NCBI GenBank assembly: GCA_016202335.1
Contig: JACQOX010000184.1
Span: 1-32,639, forward strand
DNA: 32,639 nt
Direction of reading: 5' to 3'
DNA from: Deltaproteobacteria bacterium
GTDB taxonomy: Bacteria > UBA10199 > 2-02-FULL-44-16
Position 1 is the first letter of the stretch. Every line of letters starts with the position of its first letter. Under the pieces are notes generated by a model, which was not told where the DNA came from, searched no databases, and saw only the letters and a list, made by a program, of their open reading frames with translations. Made by a program: the position numbers and the translations under genes. Shown one piece after another: positions 4,815 to 32,599 of the stretch.

Positions 4815-5879
4815 TTAATGCTGTTTTTTTCTTAAATTTGCCACTCCAGAACGGAGCTCAGTTCTGCTTTCGGTTAGTTTTGGAAAAGCCGGACACCCCG
4901 CATACGATATAAGTCCACTGGCGCATTTCTCATACGTCGCACTTTCCGCCGATTTCGAGCCCGCTTTCGCTGCATATTCCATAATCGATCGACGATCCAG
5001 CACACGCAGGTACTGCATCAGCATCGCATTTCGACGCTGAACGCGAAATGGCACTTCGTCAGACTCACCATTTTTTGTCAGCACCCACCCATTGCCTAAT
5101 TCCACAAAAGCGTGCCGTGGAGATAGCGTTTCCTTTCCATCTCTTATTACCCCCATGGAAATGAAGCTCATGGTTCCAGGCTTTATTTCTGCTGCAGGCT
5201 GGAAGAACTGACGAACGTCGTCTAAAAAATTTTCATTGGTAACATACCCCAAGGCCACCGCGGCTCCCACGGCGTAAAGCGCATAGGCATAACAACCGTT
5301 TACCCCAGGAGCGTTTATCAGATCCAATGATTCGCGGCGGAGAGGAAGATTGGGGATGATATCGATCTCATAGTAAAAAAGCACCTTCCCTTGCGTTGAT
5401 TCGGGGCGATTGGCATCGTCCACCTGATGACCCGGAAGCTGTTCACGAAACGCTGTACTCTCCCGTGGCATCCCTTCAAAACGCTCCACGTTTCTAGCTG
5501 AGACCTTTGTAATCTTGGCGCGGGGCATATTGGCTTTGACATAAGCCTCGGCCTCTTCGCGATGAGCGAAATAAGCATAGACGTGCGGTTCTCCTCTCAC
5601 CTTGCGCACTTGGACATAGGAAAAATCCTTGGAGGTATCCGGTTTTTGGCATTTGTACCCCGGATAAACGTTCCAGATGAGGCCATGCGGAAGAAACGCC
5701 GCCTGCCAGCGTAAAAACTGGCGATCGGACAGATGGTATTCGCACTTCAAATAACCGTCGGCATCCGCCACTTCGCTGGGCTCGAGGAAGCCATCGCGAT
5801 TGGCGTCGGCGTAGAGGCGAAATTCGTCGCGCAGACTGTCGTCAGGGGTGATGCTGGTGATGGAAACCTTTGTTGTCAT
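4815..5879 (-). CDS. Hypothetical protein with an EF-hand-like loop and a putative papain-like Cys/His domain
   Basis: DANRDGFLEPSE EF-hand-like loop; GCYAYAL...RHAFVELGNGWVLTKNG. aaggaag RBS-like sequence upstream of MTTKV. Confidence 0.65.
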   Translation of the reverse strand: MTTKVSITSITPDDSLRDEFRLYADANRDGFLEPSEVADADGYLKCEYHLSDRQFLRWQAAFLPHGLIWNVYPGYKCQKPDTSKDFSYVQVRKVRGEPHVYAYFAHREEAEAYVKANMPRAKITKVSARNVERFEGMPRESTAFREQLPGHQVDDANRPESTQGKVLFYYEIDIIPNLPLRRESLDLINAPGVNGCYAYALYAVGAAVALGYVTNENFLDDVRQFFQPAAEIKPGTMSFISMGVIRDGKETLSPRHAFVELGNGWVLTKNGESDEVPFRVQRRNAMLMQYLRVLDRRSIMEYAAKAGSKSAESATYEKCASGLISYAGCPAFPKLTESRTELRSGVANLRKKQH

Positions 5880-5900
5880 AATGTCTTCCTTTGACCTTAA

Positions 5901-5926
5901 TATCGGCAAAACGTCACAAAAGTTGC
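5901..5926 (-). promoter_or_regulatory. Sigma28-like promoter motif, copy 1
   Basis: Minus strand GCAACTTT-tgtgacgtttt-GCCGATA, 21 nt upstream of the ATG at 5879. Confidence 0.65.
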
Positions 5927-5990
5927 GTCTTTTTTTTAAAGCCCTCGATTTTCCCTTGCCCTCTGCGGAGGGCCTTTTTATAGGCTTAGC

Positions 5991-15012: not shown

Positions 15013-15094
<82 letters not shown>

Positions 15095-17514: not shown

Positions 17515-18512
17515 AGCGATCTTCCCATGTGCTCAGCGAGATCCAGCATGCGGCAGCTAAAGCCCATTTCATTGTCGTACCAGGCGAGCACCTTGACCAT
17601 ATTGTCGATGACGCGCGTTGAAGGCGCATCCACGAGCGACGAATGGGTGTTGCCCATGAAATCCACGGACACGCATTCATCTTCCACAAAGGCGAGAATG
17701 CCCTTGAGCGGTCCCTGGGCTGCAGCCTTTAGCTTGGCGTTGATGTCTTCGGCCGTGGCCGGATTTTTCAGTGTCGCCACGAGATCCACACATGACACGT
17801 TGATGGTCGGCACACGGATGGCCATGCCGTCCAATTTCCCTTTGAGCGCTGGGAGCACCAAGCCCACGGCCTTGGCCGCACCGGTGGTCGTCGGAATCTG
17901 CGATGCTGCCGCCGCGCGGGCACGGCGCAGGTCCTTGTGCGGTGCGTCCACGACGTTTTGATCATTGGTATACGAATGGATCGTGGTCATAAAACCGCGT
18001 TCAATGCCAAACGATTCATGCAACACTTTGACGACCGGCGCCAGGCAGTTCGTGGTACAGCTGGCATTGGAGACCACGTGATGTTCTTTGGTGTGATAAT
18101 CCTGATGATTCACGCCCATCACAAACGTCGGCACATCACCTTTGGCCGGCGCGGAAATAATGACCTTCTTGGCACCCGCTTCGAGGTGTTTCTGTGCCGT
18201 CTCCAGTTGAGTGAAAATGCCGGTGCATTCAAACACCACGTCCACACCGTGTTTTTTCCAAGGGATCAGGGTGGGATCTTTTTCGCTGCTGATGGCGATA
18301 GCACGACCGTTGACCGTCAGTGCCGTTTCCGAGGCGCTCACTTCCCCCTGAAAACGACCGTGCGCAGAATCATATTTCAGAAGATGCGCAAGGGTTGAGC
18401 TGGGGACTAAATAATTGATGGCCACGCACTCGATATTTTTACGTTGAATCATCGCCCGCAAAGCCAAGCGTCCAATGCGTCCAAACCCGTTGATACCGAT
18501 GCGAAGTGTCAT
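17511..18512 (-). CDS. gap: Glyceraldehyde-3-phosphate dehydrogenase (type I)
   Basis: [22 protein letters not shown] and WYDNE. Confidence 0.98.
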
Positions 18513-18647
18513 AAAAGTTCTCCTTTATTGAAAACGGGGCGGAATATATATTTTTGCAGTAGAGGGTCAAGAGAAGATCAGCATGATCCGGCGCAGGTGC
18601 ATTTGCCGTTGCAAGCTCGTTCGAAAATCATTAGCGGAGCAACTCAC

Positions 18648-20003
18648 ATGATTTCCAATGTCGACACCATCTGCGCGATCGCCACGCCGCCGGGACACGG
18701 AGGCCTTGGTGTTGTGCGCATCAGCGGTCCGCAGGCCAGAGGGGTGTTGGCCAGCATCTGGAGTGGAAAAACGCCGACTTCAGCTTTCGAACCACGACGA
18801 CTGTATTTGGGAACCATGGTCGATGCTCGGGGAATCCCCATTGATCATGCTCTAGCGGTTCACATGCCCGCTCCTCAGACGTATACCGGCGATGAGGTCA
18901 TCGAGATCTCTTGTCATGGAAGTCCCGTGGTGCTCGCTGCCATCGTTGACGCCTGTATCAGCGCAGGTTCACGCCTGGCCGAACCAGGGGAATTTACGCG
19001 GCGTGCTTTTTTGAATGGCAAAATCGATCTCGCGCAGGCCGAAGCTGTGGTGGATCTTATTTCCGCGACGAGCGATACGGCTGCGCGCCAGGCCCGCGAC
19101 CAGCTGGAAGGCCGGTTGTCCGTCGAAGTGAAAATGCTTCATGATGCATTGACCAACCTGCGCGCTTTTGTCGAAGCAACCATCGATTTTCCCGAAGAAG
19201 ACATCGACATGATCGATCGTCACGGCGTGGTGCAAAAATTAACCCCTATCGAAGCGCGCATCGCGCAGTTGCTTGATACCTATACACAAGGTCGTTTGAT
19301 TCGCGACGGCGTGAAGGTGGCGATCGTCGGGCGTCCGAACGCCGGGAAATCCAGCCTGCTCAATTGTTTGGCCGGCATGGAACGCGCCATCGTCCACGCC
19401 AGCCCGGGTACCACGCGAGATGTGATCGAAGTTTCGGTGTCGCTGGGCGGCATTGTTTTTCATTTGAGCGACACTGCGGGAATTCGTGAAGCGCCAGGAG
19501 ATGTTGAGAAGATCGGCATCGAACGGAGTTATGCCGCTATGGCGTCGGCAGACGTTGTTTTGCACGTCATCGACGGCACGCTTCCGATCCACGAAGACGA
19601 TCGGAAATTGTTTTCTCACCTTTCCCCATCGCGTTACCTCGTGTGCGTGAATAAGGCTGATTTGCCGCTCCAAGTGACAGAAGGTTCTATAAAAGCCAAT
19701 TTTATTTCAGCTCACACCGGAGCTGGCCTGGAGGCGCTCACCCAGGAACTTACGGCGTTTGCCGCCACCAAATCATCCGAAGGAGCTACGGCTACGGTCA
19801 CCAACCTTCGCCATAAGGAGGCGCTGGTGGAAGCTCAGCACCAGCTTCAACACGCCAAGAAAGCCATTTTAAACCATGATTCCGCGGAATTCATCGCCCA
19901 CCACCTGCGACTTGCCCAAGAGGCCTTGGGCCGTATCATCGGTCTGGATGTCACCGAAGCCATGCTCGACCGCATCTTTTCCTTGTTCTGCATCGGCAAG
20001 TAG
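18648..20003 (+). CDS. mnmE: tRNA modification GTPase MnmE
   Basis: [43 protein letters not shown] and C-terminal FCIGK. RBS ggag before ATG 18648. Confidence 0.97.
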
Positions 20004-20053: not shown

Positions 20054-21853
20054 ATGAAATTTGACGTCATTATCATCGGCGCCGGCCACGCCGGATGTGA
20101 AGCTGCTTTGGCAGCAGCACGGATGGGCGCGACAACGGCCGTCATTACGGGAACGTTAAGCACCATTGCCAAAATGAGTTGCAATCCCGCCATCGGCGGC
20201 CTCGCCAAAGGCCACCTGGTGCGCGAAATTGATGCCCTCGGCGGTGAGATGGGAAAGATCGCCGACGCCACGGGCATTCAATACCGCCGCCTCAACATGA
20301 GCCGTGGACCAGCTGTCCGCGGCACCCGCTGCCAATCCGATTCCGCCAAATATGCCATTGCCATGCGCTTGGTTGTAGAGCGTCAAGAAAATCTCATACT
20401 GATCGAAGGCATGGCCGAAGCACTATTATTGCACGGCAATCTCGTTGCCGGCGTTCGTCTGGCTGATGGTCGCGAGCTCTCAGCTCGGTCCGTGGTGATG
20501 ACGACCGGCACCTTCCTCAATGGCGAAATGCACTTTGGCCAAAAACGGGTGGCTGGAGGGCGGGTCCAGGATTTTGCCGCCATTGGCCTTTCTACTTCTC
20601 TGGCGCAGCTTGGATTTCGCATGGGCCGCATGAAAACCGGGACCTGCCCGCGTTTGGATGTAGCCACCATCGACTTTTCCCAGCTGGAACGGCAACCCGG
20701 AGAAACACCGCGACCGCGTTTTTCTTTTGAGGAAGTGGAAAATCACCTCCCTCAGCTCGATTGCCATCTCACCTATACTAATGATGCAACCCACCGCATC
20801 ATTCAGGACAATCTCCACCTCTCGCCCATGTATTCGGGGCAGATTAAGGGGGTAGGGCCCCGCTATTGTCCGTCGATCGAAGACAAAGTGGTTCGCTTTG
20901 CGGACAAAGACCGCCATCAGTTGTTTCTGGAACCCGAGGGTCTGGAGACCAATCGCATTTATATCAATGGGTTGTCGACGTCGCTTCCGGTCGAGGTTCA
21001 AGCTCAAATCCTGAAAACCATTCCTGGGCTAGAGCGTGCGACGATCCTGCAACCGGGCTATGCCGTAGAATACGATATGGTGGATCCCACCGAACTTTTT
21101 GCTTCGCTCGAAACAAAACGACTGCCCGGCCTCTTTTTAGCCGGCCAGATCAACGGTACATCGGGCTACGAAGAAGCTGCAGCACAGGGACTTATGGCAG
21201 GGATCAACGCCGTGCACCGCATTCGCGGGGAAGCGGCCCTCGTGCTCGGACGACATGAGGCCTACATCGGTGTGCTTATCGACGACCTCGTCACCAAAGG
21301 CACTTCTGAACCCTATCGCATGTTTACCTCGCGCGCGGAGTATCGACTGCTGCTGCGCGAAGACAATGCTGATTTGCGCCTGACGCCGACCGGTCGCAAC
21401 CTTAGACTTATCAACGACACCCGTTGGGAGAGGTTTATCGACAAGCGGGAACAGATCGCATCCCAAATGAAGGTGCTCAAAAATACGCATGTAAAGGGCG
21501 GTGGCACGCTGGCCGATCTTCTCCGCCGACCGGAAGTTGGGCTTGCCGCATTGGCATTGCACTATCCAGAGCTGAAGTTTTCCCATCTGCCTGCTGACAT
21601 CCAAGAGCAGCTTGAAATCCAACTCAAGTACGAAGGTTATTTGGCATCACAGGAAAATCATGCCCAACGCTTTCGCGAACTGGAAGGCATCCGCATTCCG
21701 ACGCCATTTTGCTATCACGGCATCCCCGGGCTTTCGACAGAAGTCGTCGAAAAGCTTTCATCCTTGTGCCCGAGCACTCTCGGTCAGGCCATGCGCATCT
21801 CAGGCATTACGCCCGCAGCCATTGCTATTTTGATGGTCACTCTAAAAAAATAA
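20054..21853 (+). CDS. mnmG: tRNA uridine 5-carboxymethylaminomethyl modification enzyme MnmG
   Basis: [43 protein letters not shown] and [12 protein letters not shown]. Confidence 0.98.
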
Positions 21854-21910
21854 TATAATCTCTATTTTCTTATTGCTAAGTTTTCTCTGATGTGATGAGA
21901 GAATACCTTC

Positions 21911-21988
21911 ATGGACATGGAAGATAAGACAAGTTACAGAAAACGCACATGGAACTGGTGGTCGCGCCGCCAGCAAACAACAGGATGA
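21911..21988 (+). CDS. Putative Trp-rich attenuator leader peptide (MDMEDKTSYRKRTWNWWSRRQQTTG)
   Basis: 25-aa ORF (alternative ATG at 21917) with codons TGG-AAC-TGG-TGG, ending 7 nt before a terminator hairpin. Confidence 0.65.
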   Translation: MDMEDKTSYRKRTWNWWSRRQQTTG

Positions 21989-21995
21989 AATCATT

Positions 21996-22039
21996 CACCG
22001 GGGAGGCCCAGGAACAACTGGCCTCCCCGGTGTCTTTTT
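21996..22039 (+). terminator. Intrinsic terminator / attenuator hairpin
   Basis: 13-bp stem caccggggaggcc / ggcctccccggtg followed by tcttttt. Confidence 0.85.
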
Positions 22040-22042
22040 AAG

Positions 22043-22062
22043 CCTGCCTACCGGCAGGCAGG
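22043..22062. repeat. Short palindrome CCTGCCTACCGGCAGGCAGG
   Basis: cctgcct/aggcagg stem abutting the GGAGG RBS of the 22072 ORF. Confidence 0.7.
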
Positions 22063-22071
22063 GAGGTTTTA

Positions 22072-22425
22072 ATGGCAGAAACAAACAAAATAGCGGTAAC
22101 GCACCACGTTCGTATCGACTGTTGGACCATGGGACGCGACCCAATGGTCGCTAAAATCTTGGAAAGAACGATTACTGTTGAGCTTCCAGTGATCCCAGAA
22201 AACCCCGAAGAACTGAGAAGCGTCATTGAGGCTTCAGCAAAAAGTCGGCTGGATTCGTTGGTCGCAGGTGACACTTGTTGGAGACCAAGACTTTCCAAGG
22301 TAACGCTTCTGCCAGAAGAAGAAGCTCGCGCCGAGGCATTACAGAAAGCGAAAACAACACCCTCTGCATACCAAGTATGGTTGCAGAAGTACGCACCCCA
22401 AGGATTGGCGCGCGATCGCAGGTAA
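22072..22425 (+). CDS. Hypothetical protein, paralog 1 of 3 (PENPEELR family)
   Basis: RBS ggagg; shares motifs with the next two ORFs. Confidence 0.8.
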   Translation: MAETNKIAVTHHVRIDCWTMGRDPMVAKILERTITVELPVIPENPEELRSVIEASAKSRLDSLVAGDTCWRPRLSKVTLLPEEEARAEALQKAKTTPSAYQVWLQKYAPQGLARDRR

Positions 22426-22452
22426 AAACGATTTCTCACTCAAGGAGGTTTT

Positions 22453-22821
22453 ATGTCAGACGATTCAAAAGCAGGTTTAACAGCAATTACCCGTACGGCT
22501 GTGTATGAATGCACCACACTCGGGGGTCGTGAGAAGGTAAATTACCCTGTCCCTCAACCCGTAACAGTCTATGTCAAGGCAAAACCGGAAAATCCGGAGG
22601 AATTACGAGCCCTGCTTTGGGCCGAAGCGGAAAAATTAAAACGTACTATCGGTGGGTGCTATAATTCCCGCGTAGACCAAATTCAGTTGAATTCCGAAGA
22701 AGAAGCTCTGGCAGCTACGCTTCGACCGGTCAAAAAACCGAGTAGCGGTGGTGGGGTCGCGAATGTGTTGGAAATAATTCATAAAGCCGTTCAAGACTTC
22801 CAAAAAGACAAAAAACAATAA
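22453..22821 (+). CDS. Hypothetical protein, paralog 2 of 3
   Basis: RBS aaggaggt; YEC...PENPEELR...GGC...EEEALA. Confidence 0.8.
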   Translation: MSDDSKAGLTAITRTAVYECTTLGGREKVNYPVPQPVTVYVKAKPENPEELRALLWAEAEKLKRTIGGCYNSRVDQIQLNSEEEALAATLRPVKKPSSGGGVANVLEIIHKAVQDFQKDKKQ

Positions 22822-22847
22822 GTGACGTCCGTCATATAGGAGACACC

Positions 22848-23210
22848 ATGGGGGAGCCCGGAGAACCTGGTGCTGTAAGAACGGTGCGAAAGGTTATTTT
22901 TGAATGTCCTCCAGGGGCTGGTGCCCCTGGGGGGTTAAAAGGTCCCTTTGATGTTATTGTCAATGACACTTCAAAAACCTCGGTTGAAGTGCGTGAAGGC
23001 AAGCTACTCCTTGGCCTGCCCCGCATTCCAGAAAATACCATTGAATTTCGAGAGGTTATAAGAAACCATGCCGCGCGACTGGGGCAGCTCCTTTCCGGCT
23101 GCCCACGGCCTCCGGCGGTGAAGGAAGTTATTCTCCTGGCCGCTGAAGAAGCTCGCGCCAAAACTGTCAGTCGTTGGGTTGCCGAAGTCAAACTGACTTT
23201 TCAGAAATAG
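22848..23210 (+). CDS. Hypothetical protein, paralog 3 of 3
   Basis: RBS aggag; FEC...PENTIEFR...SGC...AEEARA. Confidence 0.8.
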   Translation: MGEPGEPGAVRTVRKVIFECPPGAGAPGGLKGPFDVIVNDTSKTSVEVREGKLLLGLPRIPENTIEFREVIRNHAARLGQLLSGCPRPPAVKEVILLAAEEARAKTVSRWVAEVKLTFQK

Positions 23211-23374
23211 CTTCCCCCTTTTTCCCTTCAAAAGATTATGATTGCCTGCAAACCTGCTTTTAAGCTAGGGATCCTGCATCTCGCGTTCGAGAACAACTTT
23301 CTGCACAAGCCGATGACTGAAGATGAGCGCTCGAAGCTCGGAATGAAATTTTTCAGGAAAAATGAAAAACGCGT

Positions 23375-25972
23375 ATGGGACGTCCAGTACAAATCCGAAG
23401 CGATCCACCACTTCCCTTAGAAGTGCGTGATGCTTTGGAATTACTCATCATGACCGGAAATTTTCCGCCGCTTCTTCAATCTGGTTCCAGTACATTATCC
23501 AAATCGATTTCACCCGCTGAAGTCACCGTCGAGTTCGGCGAGTTTGATCACTTTGTTTTCAATGACCCAAAATGGCCATCGGAAACTTTTCGCCAAGCCC
23601 GCAAGGTGGCAAAACGACTACATCCCATCGACATATATTTACCACCCGAGATCACCGAACGCATCAAAGCGATCAAAAGCCAGCTTGAACGGCAGAAACT
23701 AACGAAGACAGGAACATGCGAGCGCTTCTATGAGCTGGGAATAAAACCCTATACTGACGGTGGGCTCGGTTTTTTTGATCGCTTTAGTCGACTTTTAGAT
23801 GATCGAGATGCCGTCCTCACATCCTCAGAATCCAAACGCAAGAGCATGGAGCTTACTGCAGCGGACGCCTTTGCTGGAGTCCTTGATTCCAGCAATGCTT
23901 TCGGAGGCACAAGTGAAACCGCCTATAAAATTCTTACTGCCTATCGAGCGCTTCAGGCTCCATGCGAATTAAAAATCATTCAGACACACAATCACGTTTT
24001 TGTGGAACACCAAGGGCGTGCCTTGGATCCAACCGGCATTGGTGAACTTGGATGGCGCCGTGAAATCACTCCCGCGCAACTGGCCGCCCTCTATTACGAA
24101 CGCTCTTCTGCTGCGACTCCTGACCCTGAAGTCATGGTTGAAGCTCAGTCCATTGCGTCGCACATCGATCCCAATCGCATGGGTACGGGTACTTTTATGG
24201 CCTATGCCAATTGGGTCGGTGGTCACTATGATGTTGCGGTCAGTAACACCACAAGGGCGATTCAACTTCATCCTGACAACATTGAACCAGCGCTTTTTCT
24301 TTTTCACCTCGCACGATCTTCCCCATCGCCGGAGCGACAAAGAACAGTCGCTCACAATTTCATGTCCATGCTGCCGGATCACATTGCTTCCACTGTGGTC
24401 TTGTCTGGGCTTTGCTTTGACAATGGGACCTGTGAAGAGGAGGTCGCTTGGTTGAAAAAAACTTTCCCCGATATGGGCCTTTCAGAAATGCTCAAAGCAC
24501 AAATGGCCTTTAAAGACCAATCACTGGATAGTGCTGAAATGTGGCTCGGCCTTGCGAAAACAAAGTTTCCGGCAGTAGCCATCCAGGAAATGAAAGGTAC
24601 CAATCATCCCCTTTCCATGGTCTTACAGCTAGGCGCAAAAATTTCGCTTGCGAAACAAACTTCATTTGCTCCCGCGGTAGCGGAACAAGACATCACATGG
24701 TCATTGAATATTGCTCCCTTGTTACCGGGAAGCCACGCCACCCTCGCAGAAATATATCGTCGTCAGGGCCGTTATGACTTGGCTTATCAAGAGATGAAGC
24801 GAGAGTTTGTGATTTCGACGCGTTTGGAAAATCTTTTTGCGGCCACCGGTGAATGCGCGTTACAGGCCGGCGACGTAAAATCGGCTCTTGATTTTGCCCG
24901 TCAGCACGTTGTGGAAGTTCCGGAAGAAAGTAGAGGCTACGCCCTTTTGGCAAAAATAGCCCTGACCGGCCACACCTCTGCTGCCATCGAACTAGCTCAT
25001 CAACACGCCAAGCGTGCGGTGGAACTTGCGATGAAAGAACCCTCTCCACTCCAAGCCCTTCGACTCGTTGAACTAAGCCGCATTGCCCTTCTGCTGAATA
25101 ACGGCCTCGTTCTGGCACGTGGCTACGCTGAACAGGCGCTCACAGCTGATCCTAATTCTTTTGCCGCCAAACAAAATCTCATCGAAGTTCTTTTGGCCAC
25201 GGGAACGGTCGAGGCACGCAAAGAAGCTTTGGCCAGAGCCCGCGACATGACAACGGTTTCAGAAGAACCCCAGGTGTGGTCTTTTGCAGCCACAGTCCTG
25301 GCCAGGTTGGGGTACCTGGACGATGCAGAGGCCTACTTCCGCCGAGCATTAACAACAGGATTTGTTCAACCTGAAACCTACGCAGGGCTTTTCGAAGTTC
25401 TTTTATCAAAAGATCCTGCCACCGCGCGCCAATTTTCCGAGGAAATGCGACGCCGGCACGAAAACACCCCTTGGTTCCTCGGGGTGGATGCCTATGTGGC
25501 CATGCTTCAGGGCGAGCAGGGTCGTGCTCTTGATCAGGCGGCAAAGGCGCTCAAATATAATCCTAATGACTATCATGCCCTTATCGCTTCTGGACTGGTG
25601 TACGTGCAACGAAAGACCCCCCGAGAGAGAAAAAAATCTCTTCAAGAGGCAAATAGGATTTCGGAGCATCTGAAAAAAATGTATCCCTTTGCTCCCATAA
25701 CCCATGTGCTGGAAGCTCGGGTAAACATGCGTTACGCTGCTTGGAGCGCAGCTCAACGCGCAGCCGAAGAAGCGGAACGGCTATCGCCCAACGACGACGG
25801 CAGCATCACATCCCTCAGCGTGCTTGAAACCTTGGTCGCTGTTTTAGAGGAAAGAAAGAATTTTTCTCGAATGCGTGACGTACAAACACGCATCGCCGGC
25901 AATCGCAGACGCCGCTCAGGAAATGTCCCCGGAAAACAGCACGCTGACTTTATTTCATCACCGCGCTATTGA
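23375..25972 (+). CDS. TPR-repeat protein with an N-terminal transglutaminase-like domain
   Basis: HNHVFVE...ALDPT, then many TPR-like helices (AIQLHP, LAEIYRRQGRYDLA, LGYLDDAEAYFRRAL, ALKYNPND). Start codon uncertain. Confidence 0.75.
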   Translation: MGRPVQIRSDPPLPLEVRDALELLIMTGNFPPLLQSGSSTLSKSISPAEVTVEFGEFDHFVFNDPKWPSETFRQARKVAKRLHPIDIYLPPEITERIKAIKSQLERQKLTKTGTCERFYELGIKPYTDGGLGFFDRFSRLLDDRDAVLTSSESKRKSMELTAADAFAGVLDSSNAFGGTSETAYKILTAYRALQAPCELKIIQTHNHVFVEHQGRALDPTGIGELGWRREITPAQLAALYYERSSAATPDPEVMVEAQSIASHIDPNRMGTGTFMAYANWVGGHYDVAVSNTTRAIQLHPDNIEPALFLFHLARSSPSPERQRTVAHNFMSMLPDHIASTVVLSGLCFDNGTCEEEVAWLKKTFPDMGLSEMLKAQMAFKDQSLDSAEMWLGLAKTKFPAVAIQEMKGTNHPLSMVLQLGAKISLAKQTSFAPAVAEQDITWSLNIAPLLPGSHATLAEIYRRQGRYDLAYQEMKREFVISTRLENLFAATGECALQAGDVKSALDFARQHVVEVPEESRGYALLAKIALTGHTSAAIELAHQHAKRAVELAMKEPSPLQALRLVELSRIALLLNNGLVLARGYAEQALTADPNSFAAKQNLIEVLLATGTVEARKEALARARDMTTVSEEPQVWSFAATVLARLGYLDDAEAYFRRALTTGFVQPETYAGLFEVLLSKDPATARQFSEEMRRRHENTPWFLGVDAYVAMLQGEQGRALDQAAKALKYNPNDYHALIASGLVYVQRKTPRERKKSLQEANRISEHLKKMYPFAPITHVLEARVNMRYAAWSAAQRAAEEAERLSPNDDGSITSLSVLETLVAVLEERKNFSRMRDVQTRIAGNRRRRSGNVPGKQHADFISSPRY

Positions 25973-29682: not shown

Positions 29683-29828
29683 AACTATTGAAGAAAGGGA
29701 AGAATTTTTTAGGCCTTTTGAAAAATCGATGGTTATTTTTCCATCGTCAAAATCTTTATCAAAATCAGGTGGTTGGCGCTTTTTCGATTTCATAGGAAAG
29801 ACCATAGTCAAAAAAGAGAAAAATACAC

Positions 29829-31426: not shown

Positions 31427-31452
31427 GCAACTTTTTTGAGCGGCAGTCGAAG
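31427..31452 (+). promoter_or_regulatory. Sigma28-like promoter motif, copy 3
   Basis: GCAACTTT-tttgagcggca-GTCGAAG. Confidence 0.6.
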
Positions 31453-31492
31453 ATATAAACAGAGGAAGCATCATTTTCAATGGAGTTCACTT

Positions 31493-32599
31493 ATGAGCAA
31501 CTGCAAAGTCACTTCTCACAGTGCGTGTATCCAGGGTTCTGTAACAGAAGCTTTTTTTAAAGCGGTCATGGATATTTGGGATGGTGGCAGCTGGAAGACT
31601 CGAGAGTTTACAGTAACGAAGAGAAACCCTGAATATGGCCCCTGGTCTGGGATCTTTGGTCGATCCCCTGTAATCGATGAATCACGTCTTGACAACTATA
31701 GCTACGACCCTCCGCAAAATTATGAAGAGATTTGCGTGGAAGAGTTTGTTTGCCCGCAATTTAGCACTCCCTTAATATTAACAAATAATTCTGCCAGGGC
31801 AGCGCTTGCCGCCTCCCAGAACGCAGTTGTAGAGACTTTTAATAATGCGCATGTTGAAAACTGGGATCCAGAAGTTCGCAACCTCTTTGGGGCCATCTCT
31901 GAGTTTTCGTCCATTGAATTCATTCGCGCTGCTCCACTTGCATCCACAAATTTTCTTCTGAATGGGGTTCGGGGGAGCGTTGAGCATTATTTCGAAGCGG
32001 TAAGTAAATATTTTACAGCTCGATACGCGCAGCCTCTGTGCGAACGAGATTCAATGGACACGCTCCTCAGAGGGTTGGCCCCAGATGACGTGGTGCTGGG
32101 AGACCATTATGGAACAGATAGGAAGAAGTACAACGATGCAATGGCGCGGTCAGAAATAGATGAGCATGCACTTATAGAAGCTACCACGTATTTTGCCACG
32201 CGCGACCAAAATTTAGCACACGCCCTCATGGCGGCTTGGTACTTCCGCGGCGGCAATATAACTGCGGCGAAGGCGGAAACCGATCAGATTTGCTTTCCCA
32301 AAACGGATCTTTCTACCAGCCGTGACCGTATCATTGCCAAGGTGCTTTCGGATGTGAATCGCGCTGCTGCAGCTCCCACAGGCGAAGAAGACAAAGCCCC
32401 AACCGGCGCTACCGAAACACCCCCGACCAGAAAGCCTTCTAAGAAAACGAGACCTGCTGAGCCTGCAGACGACTCTGCTAAAAGGGCTCGTGAGGCCGAA
32501 AAACGCCGCAAAGCCGAAGAAGCGGATAAAAAGCGCCGCGAGGCAGAAGACGCTGCTAAACCGGGTAAACGAGGACGGCCAAGAGACGAAGGATTTTAA
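31493..32599 (+). CDS. Hypothetical protein with a Pro/Lys/Arg/Glu-rich C-terminal tail
   Basis: ggag RBS before ATG 31493; 368-aa ORF with a low-complexity charged tail. Confidence 0.7.
   Translation: MSNCKVTSHSACIQGSVTEAFFKAVMDIWDGGSWKTREFTVTKRNPEYGPWSGIFGRSPVIDESRLDNYSYDPPQNYEEICVEEFVCPQFSTPLILTNNSARAALAASQNAVVETFNNAHVENWDPEVRNLFGAISEFSSIEFIRAAPLASTNFLLNGVRGSVEHYFEAVSKYFTARYAQPLCERDSMDTLLRGLAPDDVVLGDHYGTDRKKYNDAMARSEIDEHALIEATTYFATRDQNLAHALMAAWYFRGGNITAAKAETDQICFPKTDLSTSRDRIIAKVLSDVNRAAAAPTGEEDKAPTGATETPPTRKPSKKTRPAEPADDSAKRAREAEKRRKAEEADKKRREAEDAAKPGKRGRPRDEGF

Follow-up and report, generated by a model that had tools for sequence, protein, structure and literature searches.

Do three consecutive genes for proteins of about 120 residues represent an unrecognised protein family, and do they form one system with the sequences on either side? 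The question is raised by positions 22072 to 23210 of contig JACQOX010000184.1 (Deltaproteobacteria bacterium, assembly GCA_016202335.1), referred to here as the window, which is the whole stretch of 32,639 nt that was analysed. The original prediction, made from the DNA letters alone, described a tandem array of divergent paralogs defining an unrecognised domain, with two conserved cysteines and variable loops, and grouped this array with a Trp-containing leader and a downstream TPR gene as a candidate system.

Layout and paralogy of genes A, B and C

Genes A (22072..22425, 117 aa), B (22453..22821, 122 aa) and C (22848..23210, 120 aa) all lie on the + strand at the positions predicted, with spacers of 27 nt (A-B) and 26 nt (B-C). 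Each is preceded by a strong Shine-Dalgarno sequence 4-6 nt 5' of its ATG (AGGGAGG, AAGGAGG and AGGAGA, respectively), as had been noted. The encoded proteins of ~13 kDa are mildly basic (pI 8.5-9.4; 8.66 for A, 8.53 for B and 9.39 for C) and have negative GRAVY values. Judged by Kyte-Doolittle hydropathy, on which no 15-residue window exceeds 0.91, none of the three has a hydrophobic segment and no signal-peptide-like or membrane segment is visible, in line with the predicted lack of a signal peptide.

The MAFFT alignment of the three proteins contains 17 invariant columns, and every motif listed in the original prediction is present in it, in the same order. These are a first cysteine motif (IDC in A, YEC in B and FEC in C), the PEN motif (PENPEELR, PENPEELR and PENTIEFR), a second cysteine motif (DTC, GGC and SGC) and the EEA block (VTLLPEEEARA, IQLNSEEEALA and VILLAAEEARA). 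Each protein has exactly two cysteines, both in invariant columns: Cys17 and Cys69 in A, Cys20 and Cys69 in B, and Cys20 and Cys85 in C. The variable parts, again as described beforehand, are the segments between the motifs and the C-termini, together with a 16-residue insert that C carries after strand 1.

Pairwise identities are 32% (A-B), 35% (A-C) and 27% (B-C). The Smith-Waterman scores of the three pairs (118, 90 and 56, against shuffle means of ~28 with an sd of 5) correspond to z values of 18.3, 12.5 and 5.5, and in each case the observed score was reached by none of 1000 shuffles. BLASTP aligned A with B (E 8e-13) and B with C (E 8e-5), and returned no alignment of A with C. The significance of all three Smith-Waterman comparisons bears out the claim that these are divergent paralogs.

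The similarity among the genes is confined to frame +1 (118, 90 and 56), the remaining five frames scoring 46 at most. In the codon alignment, identity is 0.53-0.60 at position 2, 0.40-0.47 at position 1 and 0.22-0.30 at position 3, the last being at random level. This order of positions argues for ancient duplicates that protein-level selection has preserved. Similarly, pS values of 0.73-0.93 compare with pN values of 0.47-0.54, and the saturation of synonymous sites suggests that the paralogs have coexisted in the genome for a long time. Of the six frames, +1 scores best for codon usage in A, B and C; the score of gene A (-0.017) lies below the 5th percentile (0.068) of the 704 long ORFs of the genome.

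An alternative is that the ORFs are untranslated copies of a non-coding DNA repeat, from which their similarity would stem. Two features would fit such an element: A and C are overlapped by antisense ORFs (133 and 119 codons, respectively), and 15-27 nt at the EEEA codons are also conserved as DNA. However, the middle copy, B, has no long antisense ORF, a ribosome-binding site stands before every ORF, and a similarity found in frame +1 only, with second positions the most conserved and third positions at random level, speaks against repeated DNA. We consider this alternative highly improbable, and A, B and C are very likely real coding paralogs. The codon comparison indicates that they are old duplicates maintained by protein-level selection. 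They would descend from one ancestor via two old tandem duplications and would have been retained by that selection in a lineage for which one groundwater genome is available so far. Three old paralogs supply internal evidence of protein-level selection that a single orphan never could.

Searches for relatives and the predicted fold

Membership of a known family or PDB entry was accepted where the curated cut-off was reached (families) or E was <= 0.001, and at this level no library recognised the trio. The best Pfam-A match was SecD_1st (E 0.037, 13.9 bits, below the cut-off of 27), the best NCBIfam match was SecDF (13.3 bits, below the cut-off of 721), and the best PHROGs match had an E of 0.14. 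The PADLOC scan gave no match, and a profile search of PDB sequences returned a single row, 9ihh_A, at E 0.018. The refuting outcome, a match to an already characterised family, was not found, and the prediction that the family is unrecognised stands.

The larger searches led to the same picture. A profile search of 5.8 billion clustered proteins recovered only A, B and C themselves from 1716 candidates. A reading in full of 1.84 billion representatives gave A, B and C plus P0004 (E 3.7e-4), an 809-aa repeat protein that was rejected since only 22 residues matched; this full reading of every representative protein argues against fused or split forms of the trio. In six-frame searches, the genome itself gave three matches among 13 scored candidates, while nothing below E 0.067 was found in 60 related genomes, of which the five best rows (E 0.067-0.32) were rejected as relatives. 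Across the class, one of 93 genomes was positive, this being the genome of origin, and the 92 others were without a match. None of the 130 candidate stretches of viral contigs encoded a relative. One of 343 stretches of metagenome contigs was rejected, as its 93-aa ORF shared only the VIPENP.E pattern that had been searched for. A literature search for the PENPEEL motif gave no match.

Thus, on the searches made, the trio is a genuine orphan family, so far unique to one genome. The newness is narrow: neither sequence and profile comparisons nor the predicted fold revealed a relative among some 15 billion public proteins. Orphan genes and families are usual in poorly sampled, uncultured lineages, and orphan status alone does not point to new biology.

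AlphaFold2 models of A and C were built on the three-row alignment of A, B and C. Model A (pLDDT 68.3, pTM 0.50) consists of strands at 7-18 and 27-38, a helix at 45-63, a strand at 70-78 and helices at 81-94 and 99-107. Model C (pLDDT 53.9) has the same order of elements, with an extra hairpin at the insert of C. The original prediction had looked to monomer models for a common fold: the shared order of elements is there, but confidence is low for both models (pLDDT 68 and 54). Taken at face value, each protein would fold into a small alpha/beta domain of two layers, in which a beta hairpin is followed by helix, strand and helix. Whether the trio adopts this beta-beta-alpha-beta-alpha fold is, on these models, a matter of even chances.

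Structural searches with these models gave no convincing fold match. Foldseek against the PDB gave a best E of 0.19 and nothing at E <= 0.001. In the wide VIA-align search none of 48161 chains reached Z >= 5; the best Z was 4.7 (2qsd), followed by PurS and LX/eL20 (Z 4.4-4.6), whereas the best Z typical of this tool for models that have no clear match is 7-8. The BFVD fold search had a best E of 6.3e-3, with none at E <= 0.001, and the Atlas structure rows reached TM values of up to 0.57 with unnamed and mostly viral clusters. An Atlas search by features gave nothing at or above 0.9. With models this weak, newness of the fold cannot be claimed.

In model A, PEN-x-x-E-x-R begins helix 1 and EEA begins helix 2. 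Since proline and glutamate are common capping residues at helix N-termini, we read both motifs as structural: in the model they are probably helix caps that hold the scaffold, rather than parts of an active site.

The insertion, its leader region and the TPR gene

The trio lies within an insertion of 4.1 kb (21854..25957), specific to this lineage, that also contains the leader ORF, a terminator, a palindrome and the TPR gene. The flanks are mnmG upstream and, downstream, a convergent gene of the deoxyhypusine synthase (DHS) family on the - strand. Both mnmE and mnmG, upstream, exceed their NCBIfam cut-offs; the DHS-family gene has a Pfam DS match and is below the NCBIfam equivalog cut-offs. 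In a genome of the same family (G001), whose MnmG and DHS-family proteins are 68% and 77% identical to those found here, only 3 nt lie between the mnmG stop and the DHS-family gene end. The abutting genes of G001 suggest that 21854-25957 was either gained here or lost there. Another genome, G003, shows yet another arrangement 3' of mnmG, and the sequence of G002 is cut at this place. Third-position GC is 0.437 in the trio (2.8% of long ORFs are lower) and 0.474 in the TPR gene (7.8% are lower), compared with a genome mean of 0.585. Per-run contigs of two runs span both junctions of the insertion with 0 differences, which indicates that the insertion is not an assembly chimera. The trio was also covered by four groundwater runs of one study, with 0 differences and no variants; these runs may be the sample series behind the genome assembly. 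The trio may mark a 4.1-kb gain within an otherwise conserved neighbourhood.

That the region is an insertion of low GC3 would fit a further alternative, in which the three genes are remnants of a phage or other mobile element and encode, for instance, small regulators or proteins that counter defence. Their weak structural neighbours, mostly unnamed small phage proteins (BFVD 6.3e-3; Atlas TM 0.57), point in the same direction. Against it, no integrase, transposase or phage structural protein was found in the family scans made for the window, where the only tRNA gene found is at 15013-15094. The PHROG result and the 0 of 130 viral stretches are equally unfavourable, as is the age of the paralogs with their saturated synonymous sites. 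We regard such an origin as improbable. In the reading that we prefer, the trio would serve an accessory function that came with, or developed within, this low-GC3 insertion.

At the 5' end of the region, a sigma-70-like site (21830-21859, +) stands upstream of a candidate leader ORF (21911..21988, +) of 25 codons, MDMEDKTSYRKRTWNWWSRRQQTTG, with Trp at codons 14, 16 and 17. Its codon score is -0.135 compared with -0.099 for the best frame, and the frame is not singled out. The ORF is followed by an intrinsic-terminator-like hairpin (21998..22039, +) with an 11-bp G+C-rich stem (21998-22008 / 22020-22030) and then TGTCTTTTT. Folding of the leader region (-80.5 kcal/mol, z -5.35) is far beyond that of shuffles. 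The U tract of the terminator is 32 nt from the start codon of gene A, and no promoter-like site was found on the + strand between 21860 and 22636; given this short gap and the lack of a promoter-like site within it, the trio probably depends on read-through. Its message would start upstream and read through the terminator. A sigma-28-like promoter motif, GCAAC-N15-CCGATAA, has 58 sites in the genome, none of them before the trio or the TPR gene, where the best score is -2.2 compared with a site median of 35.7.

No antiterminator alternative was predicted. When 21939-21977 was forced to be unpaired, the full terminator hairpin stayed in the minimum-energy fold, and in these folding predictions only a ribosome placed at the leader stop codon eroded the base of the terminator. 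The predicted structures therefore give no support to a classical attenuator of the trp type, nor, on the same point, to the idea that the Trp leader belongs to the trio system, the terminator being formed even with the Trp codons masked.

Between the terminator and gene A lies a copy of a repeat (22042..22066, +) that contains a perfect 20-nt palindrome (22043-22062) and runs into the Shine-Dalgarno sequence of gene A. It matched once in the window and in none of 100 shuffles. There are eight copies in this genome (at <= 2 mismatches), and copies also occur in 8 of the 20 related genomes compared. GGGAGG forms the end of the repeat, and five of the eight copies stand 2-5 nt before a start codon, which suggests that the repeat supplies the ribosome-binding site. 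In another genome (G017) the palindrome is embedded in a longer composite repeat. That the terminator is a part of such a composite was not borne out, the alignment score of the upstream part (15) being reached by 160-193 of 500 shuffles. A literature search for the palindrome gave no match.

The TPR gene (23375..25972, +) encodes 865 aa; its TPR repeats follow an unnamed domain that takes up the N-terminal ~250 residues. No terminator-like site was seen in the 164 nt between gene C and its start, and co-transcription with the trio is possible. The protein has a 30%-identical paralog in its own genome (contig C150), and 9 of 60 related genomes contain relatives of it; a pattern scan with the TPR protein gave no relative. 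None of the genomes that hold TPR relatives contained a relative of the trio at E < 0.05, and a comparable small-gene array was absent upstream of the three other copies inspected (C150, G031 and G053). By these comparisons, the association of the trio with the TPR gene is not conserved. The view that the trio and the TPR gene are one system was not borne out, as TPR relatives occur elsewhere without the trio, and the evidence does not support joining the Trp leader, the trio and the TPR gene into a three-part system.

Tandem, divergent small paralogs that lack signal peptides and adjoin a large multidomain protein, within an insertion of atypical composition, also resemble an immunity or inhibitor array, directed against the neighbouring large protein or against a toxin encoded elsewhere, as in polymorphic-toxin loci. 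However, neither the trio nor the 865-aa protein showed a recognised toxin or defence family; the latter matched only TPR families, and its first ~250 residues matched nothing. The three TPR-family loci that have no trio-like array, and the TPR-relative genomes that have no trio relative, also argue against it, and we judge an immunity role to be quite unlikely. A transglutaminase-like reading of the N-terminal domain, based on a motif that we took to be of this type, was dropped, having no Pfam or PDB support.

The cysteine pair, candidate functions and known systems

Our preferred explanation returns to the conserved features of the trio. In model A, Cys17 ends strand 1 and Cys69 directly precedes strand 3; a hairpin followed by a crossover helix would place both cysteines on one edge of the sheet. 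By this topology, the pair would be the only candidate functional site, either as a disulfide or redox pair or as half of a metal site that is completed by a second subunit. A functional role for the pair is possible, with our judgement leaning a little against it. As a lead on what the trio does, the pair is the one concrete and, on the models, plausible starting point. If it builds a metal or redox site between subunits, the family would add a new small scaffold.

The explanation that we favour overall, at just short of an even chance, is that of soluble two-Cys paralogs acting as diversified binding modules with an accessory function in the insertion. Since the loops, one insert and the tails differ among A, B and C, we infer three binding modules diversified on one scaffold; taken by itself, the preference for such modules over a single obligate complex, or over other possibilities, is rather doubtful. 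In the obligate complex, A, B and C would form a hetero-oligomer in which neighbouring Cys pairs build a four-Cys metal or iron-sulfur site. Equal gene sizes, tight spacing and similarly strong ribosome-binding sites are consistent with such an assembly, and a single chain, with exactly two invariant cysteines, could not form a mononuclear site by itself. No observation contradicts this assembly directly. However, identities of 27-35% and divergent loops fit separate specificities equally well, and the insertion contains no iron-sulfur or metal-handling gene. A hetero-oligomer of this kind appears unlikely, and diversified binding modules are retained in the preferred explanation.

Some context is given by the genome (1.65 Mb, 81% complete). 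Its FHIPEP protein passes the SctV equivalog cut-off (750.9 bits compared with 692.25) and fails that of FlhA, and no flagellin was found in a search of the genome. An SctV-type export gate together with the lack of a flagellin suggests that a cell-contact lifestyle is possible. As a separate observation, Hc1 was not found in the genome and TLC gave only a fragment match (30.2 bits). The most far-reaching reading would combine these elements: the trio would found a new two-Cys alpha/beta mini-domain whose hetero-oligomers, linked at their Cys edges by metal or disulfides, serve as diversified host- or prey-interaction modules of a bacterium with an injectisome-type export gate. Expression would be gated by read-through of leader, terminator and palindrome, a cassette derived from a repeat family that distributes ribosome-binding sites. 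Taken jointly, this is a long shot.

The closest structural comparisons are with IL1583 (2qsd), PurS (1vq3, 2yx5) and LX/eL20 (9nri_BQ, 4v6u_Bl), which have the hairpin-helix-strand order of model A. The first 80 residues of the model align with them over 54-63 residues at Z 4.4-4.7, which is below the tool's own uninformative level, with an rmsd of 2.4-4.0 and an identity of 9-12%. None of them was named by the sequence-library or profile searches with the trio and, to our knowledge, none of these families carries its Cys pair. Unnamed small phage proteins (in BFVD, and ESM Atlas clusters of 86-124 aa) are alike in size and in overall predicted shape, an ESM Atlas phage cluster giving TM values of 0.57 (query) and 0.72 (target) across 82 residues. 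They differ in that no match reaches E <= 0.001 and no sequence similarity is seen, and the structures are predictions on both sides.

Class I chaperones of type III secretion (CesT/SycE type) are small, acidic proteins with a pI of about 4-5, and their fold is a dimer-forming alpha-beta-beta-beta-alpha-beta-beta-alpha. The trio differs in charge, being basic (pI 8.66, 8.53 and 9.39), and the fold predicted here, from low-confidence models, is beta-beta-alpha-beta-alpha; no chain of this type was among the best 50 Foldseek or the best 50 VIA-align rows obtained with these models. Immunity arrays of polymorphic toxins adjoin a recognised toxin domain, whereas the 865-aa neighbour of the trio shows only TPR families.

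Two comparisons concern the 5' region. The short ORF, with three Trp in four codons and ending 9 nt before a strong terminator hairpin, is shared with attenuators of the trpL type. In those, stalling of the ribosome at the Trp codons allows an antiterminator to form, whereas no such pairing is predicted here; they also control tryptophan genes, whereas the genes downstream here match no family of tryptophan synthesis or uptake. Finally, the palindrome, which is repeated many times in the intergenic DNA of several related genomes, resembles REP-like elements. It differs from them in its apparent supply of a ribosome-binding site before genes, and the 5' end of the trio region thus exposes a repeat family that would provide such sites.

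Leader and palindromic repeat upstream of gene A

Gene A (22072..22425), the first of the trio of small paralogs, is preceded at 21911-22039 by a leader whose sequence comprises a 25-codon ORF with the motif W-N-W-W, followed 9 nt on by a strong terminator hairpin. Folding prediction gave no antiterminator alternative for this leader, and the region is absent from all related genomes.

The leader is followed at 22042-22066 by a perfect 20-nt palindrome and then GAGG. This element is a repeat, with eight copies in the genome carrying the window when up to two mismatches are allowed; the others lie on contigs C180 (1768), C101 (9877), C140 (3101), C156 (3154), C24 (1533), C153 (2531) and C5 (2). 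A reversed control pattern, searched in the same genome at the same tolerance, gave no copies. At five of the eight copies (up to two mismatches), a start codon is found 2-5 nt downstream, and the Shine-Dalgarno sequence of these five is supplied by the repeat itself. Copies are present in 8 of 20 related genomes, with the highest number in G017 (50 copies) and 17 in G012, and none of the three same-family genomes carries one. In G017, 18 of the 19 exact copies examined are enclosed in a longer composite palindromic repeat rather than placed at a gene start. A literature search with the palindrome sequence led to no paper with a match.

A second repeat family was also observed in the genome carrying the window. 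It is at least 35 nt long, begins with ACGTTGCAACGTGCCCC, and has six copies (C26:13553, C46:43, C62:482, C113:15, C120:716 and C141:15), three of which (those on C46, C113 and C141) start within 43 nt of a contig end.

Promoter-like motifs and the start of mnmE

A strong copy of the promoter-like motif GCAAC-N15-CCGATAA, which occurs genome-wide, was mapped to position 5929 on the minus strand, preceding the orphan gene 4815..5909; its score is 35.9, versus a site median of 35.7. Weaker variants, ending TCGAAGATA, were mapped on the plus strand to positions 29826 and 31424, the latter directly upstream of the orphan gene 31436..32599.

The listed mnmE ORF (18444-20003) opens with TTG, around 70 codons ahead of the match to the MnmE model, which covers residues 73-519. 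The true start is probably an internal Met.

Conserved stretches in the trio and the TPR protein

Genes A, B and C resemble one another at the DNA level where they encode the EEEA(R)A motif (22306-22332, 22694-22708 and 23133-23159, respectively). Identity across the three genes is 87-93% in the 15-nt core and 81% between A and C over 27 nt, while third codon positions outside this stretch are random. This likeness could reflect local gene conversion or chance.

The downstream TPR protein belongs to a family with a conserved, unnamed N-terminal domain of about 250 residues (23375-24100; alignment A5, with L099, L100 and L101), for which no match was found in Pfam or among PDB sequences. Cys115, Cys197, His207 and Asp218 (window numbering) are invariant in this alignment. 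An additional Cys, in G-x-C-[ST]-E-A, is kept by three of the four family members, the window copy having Thr at this position.
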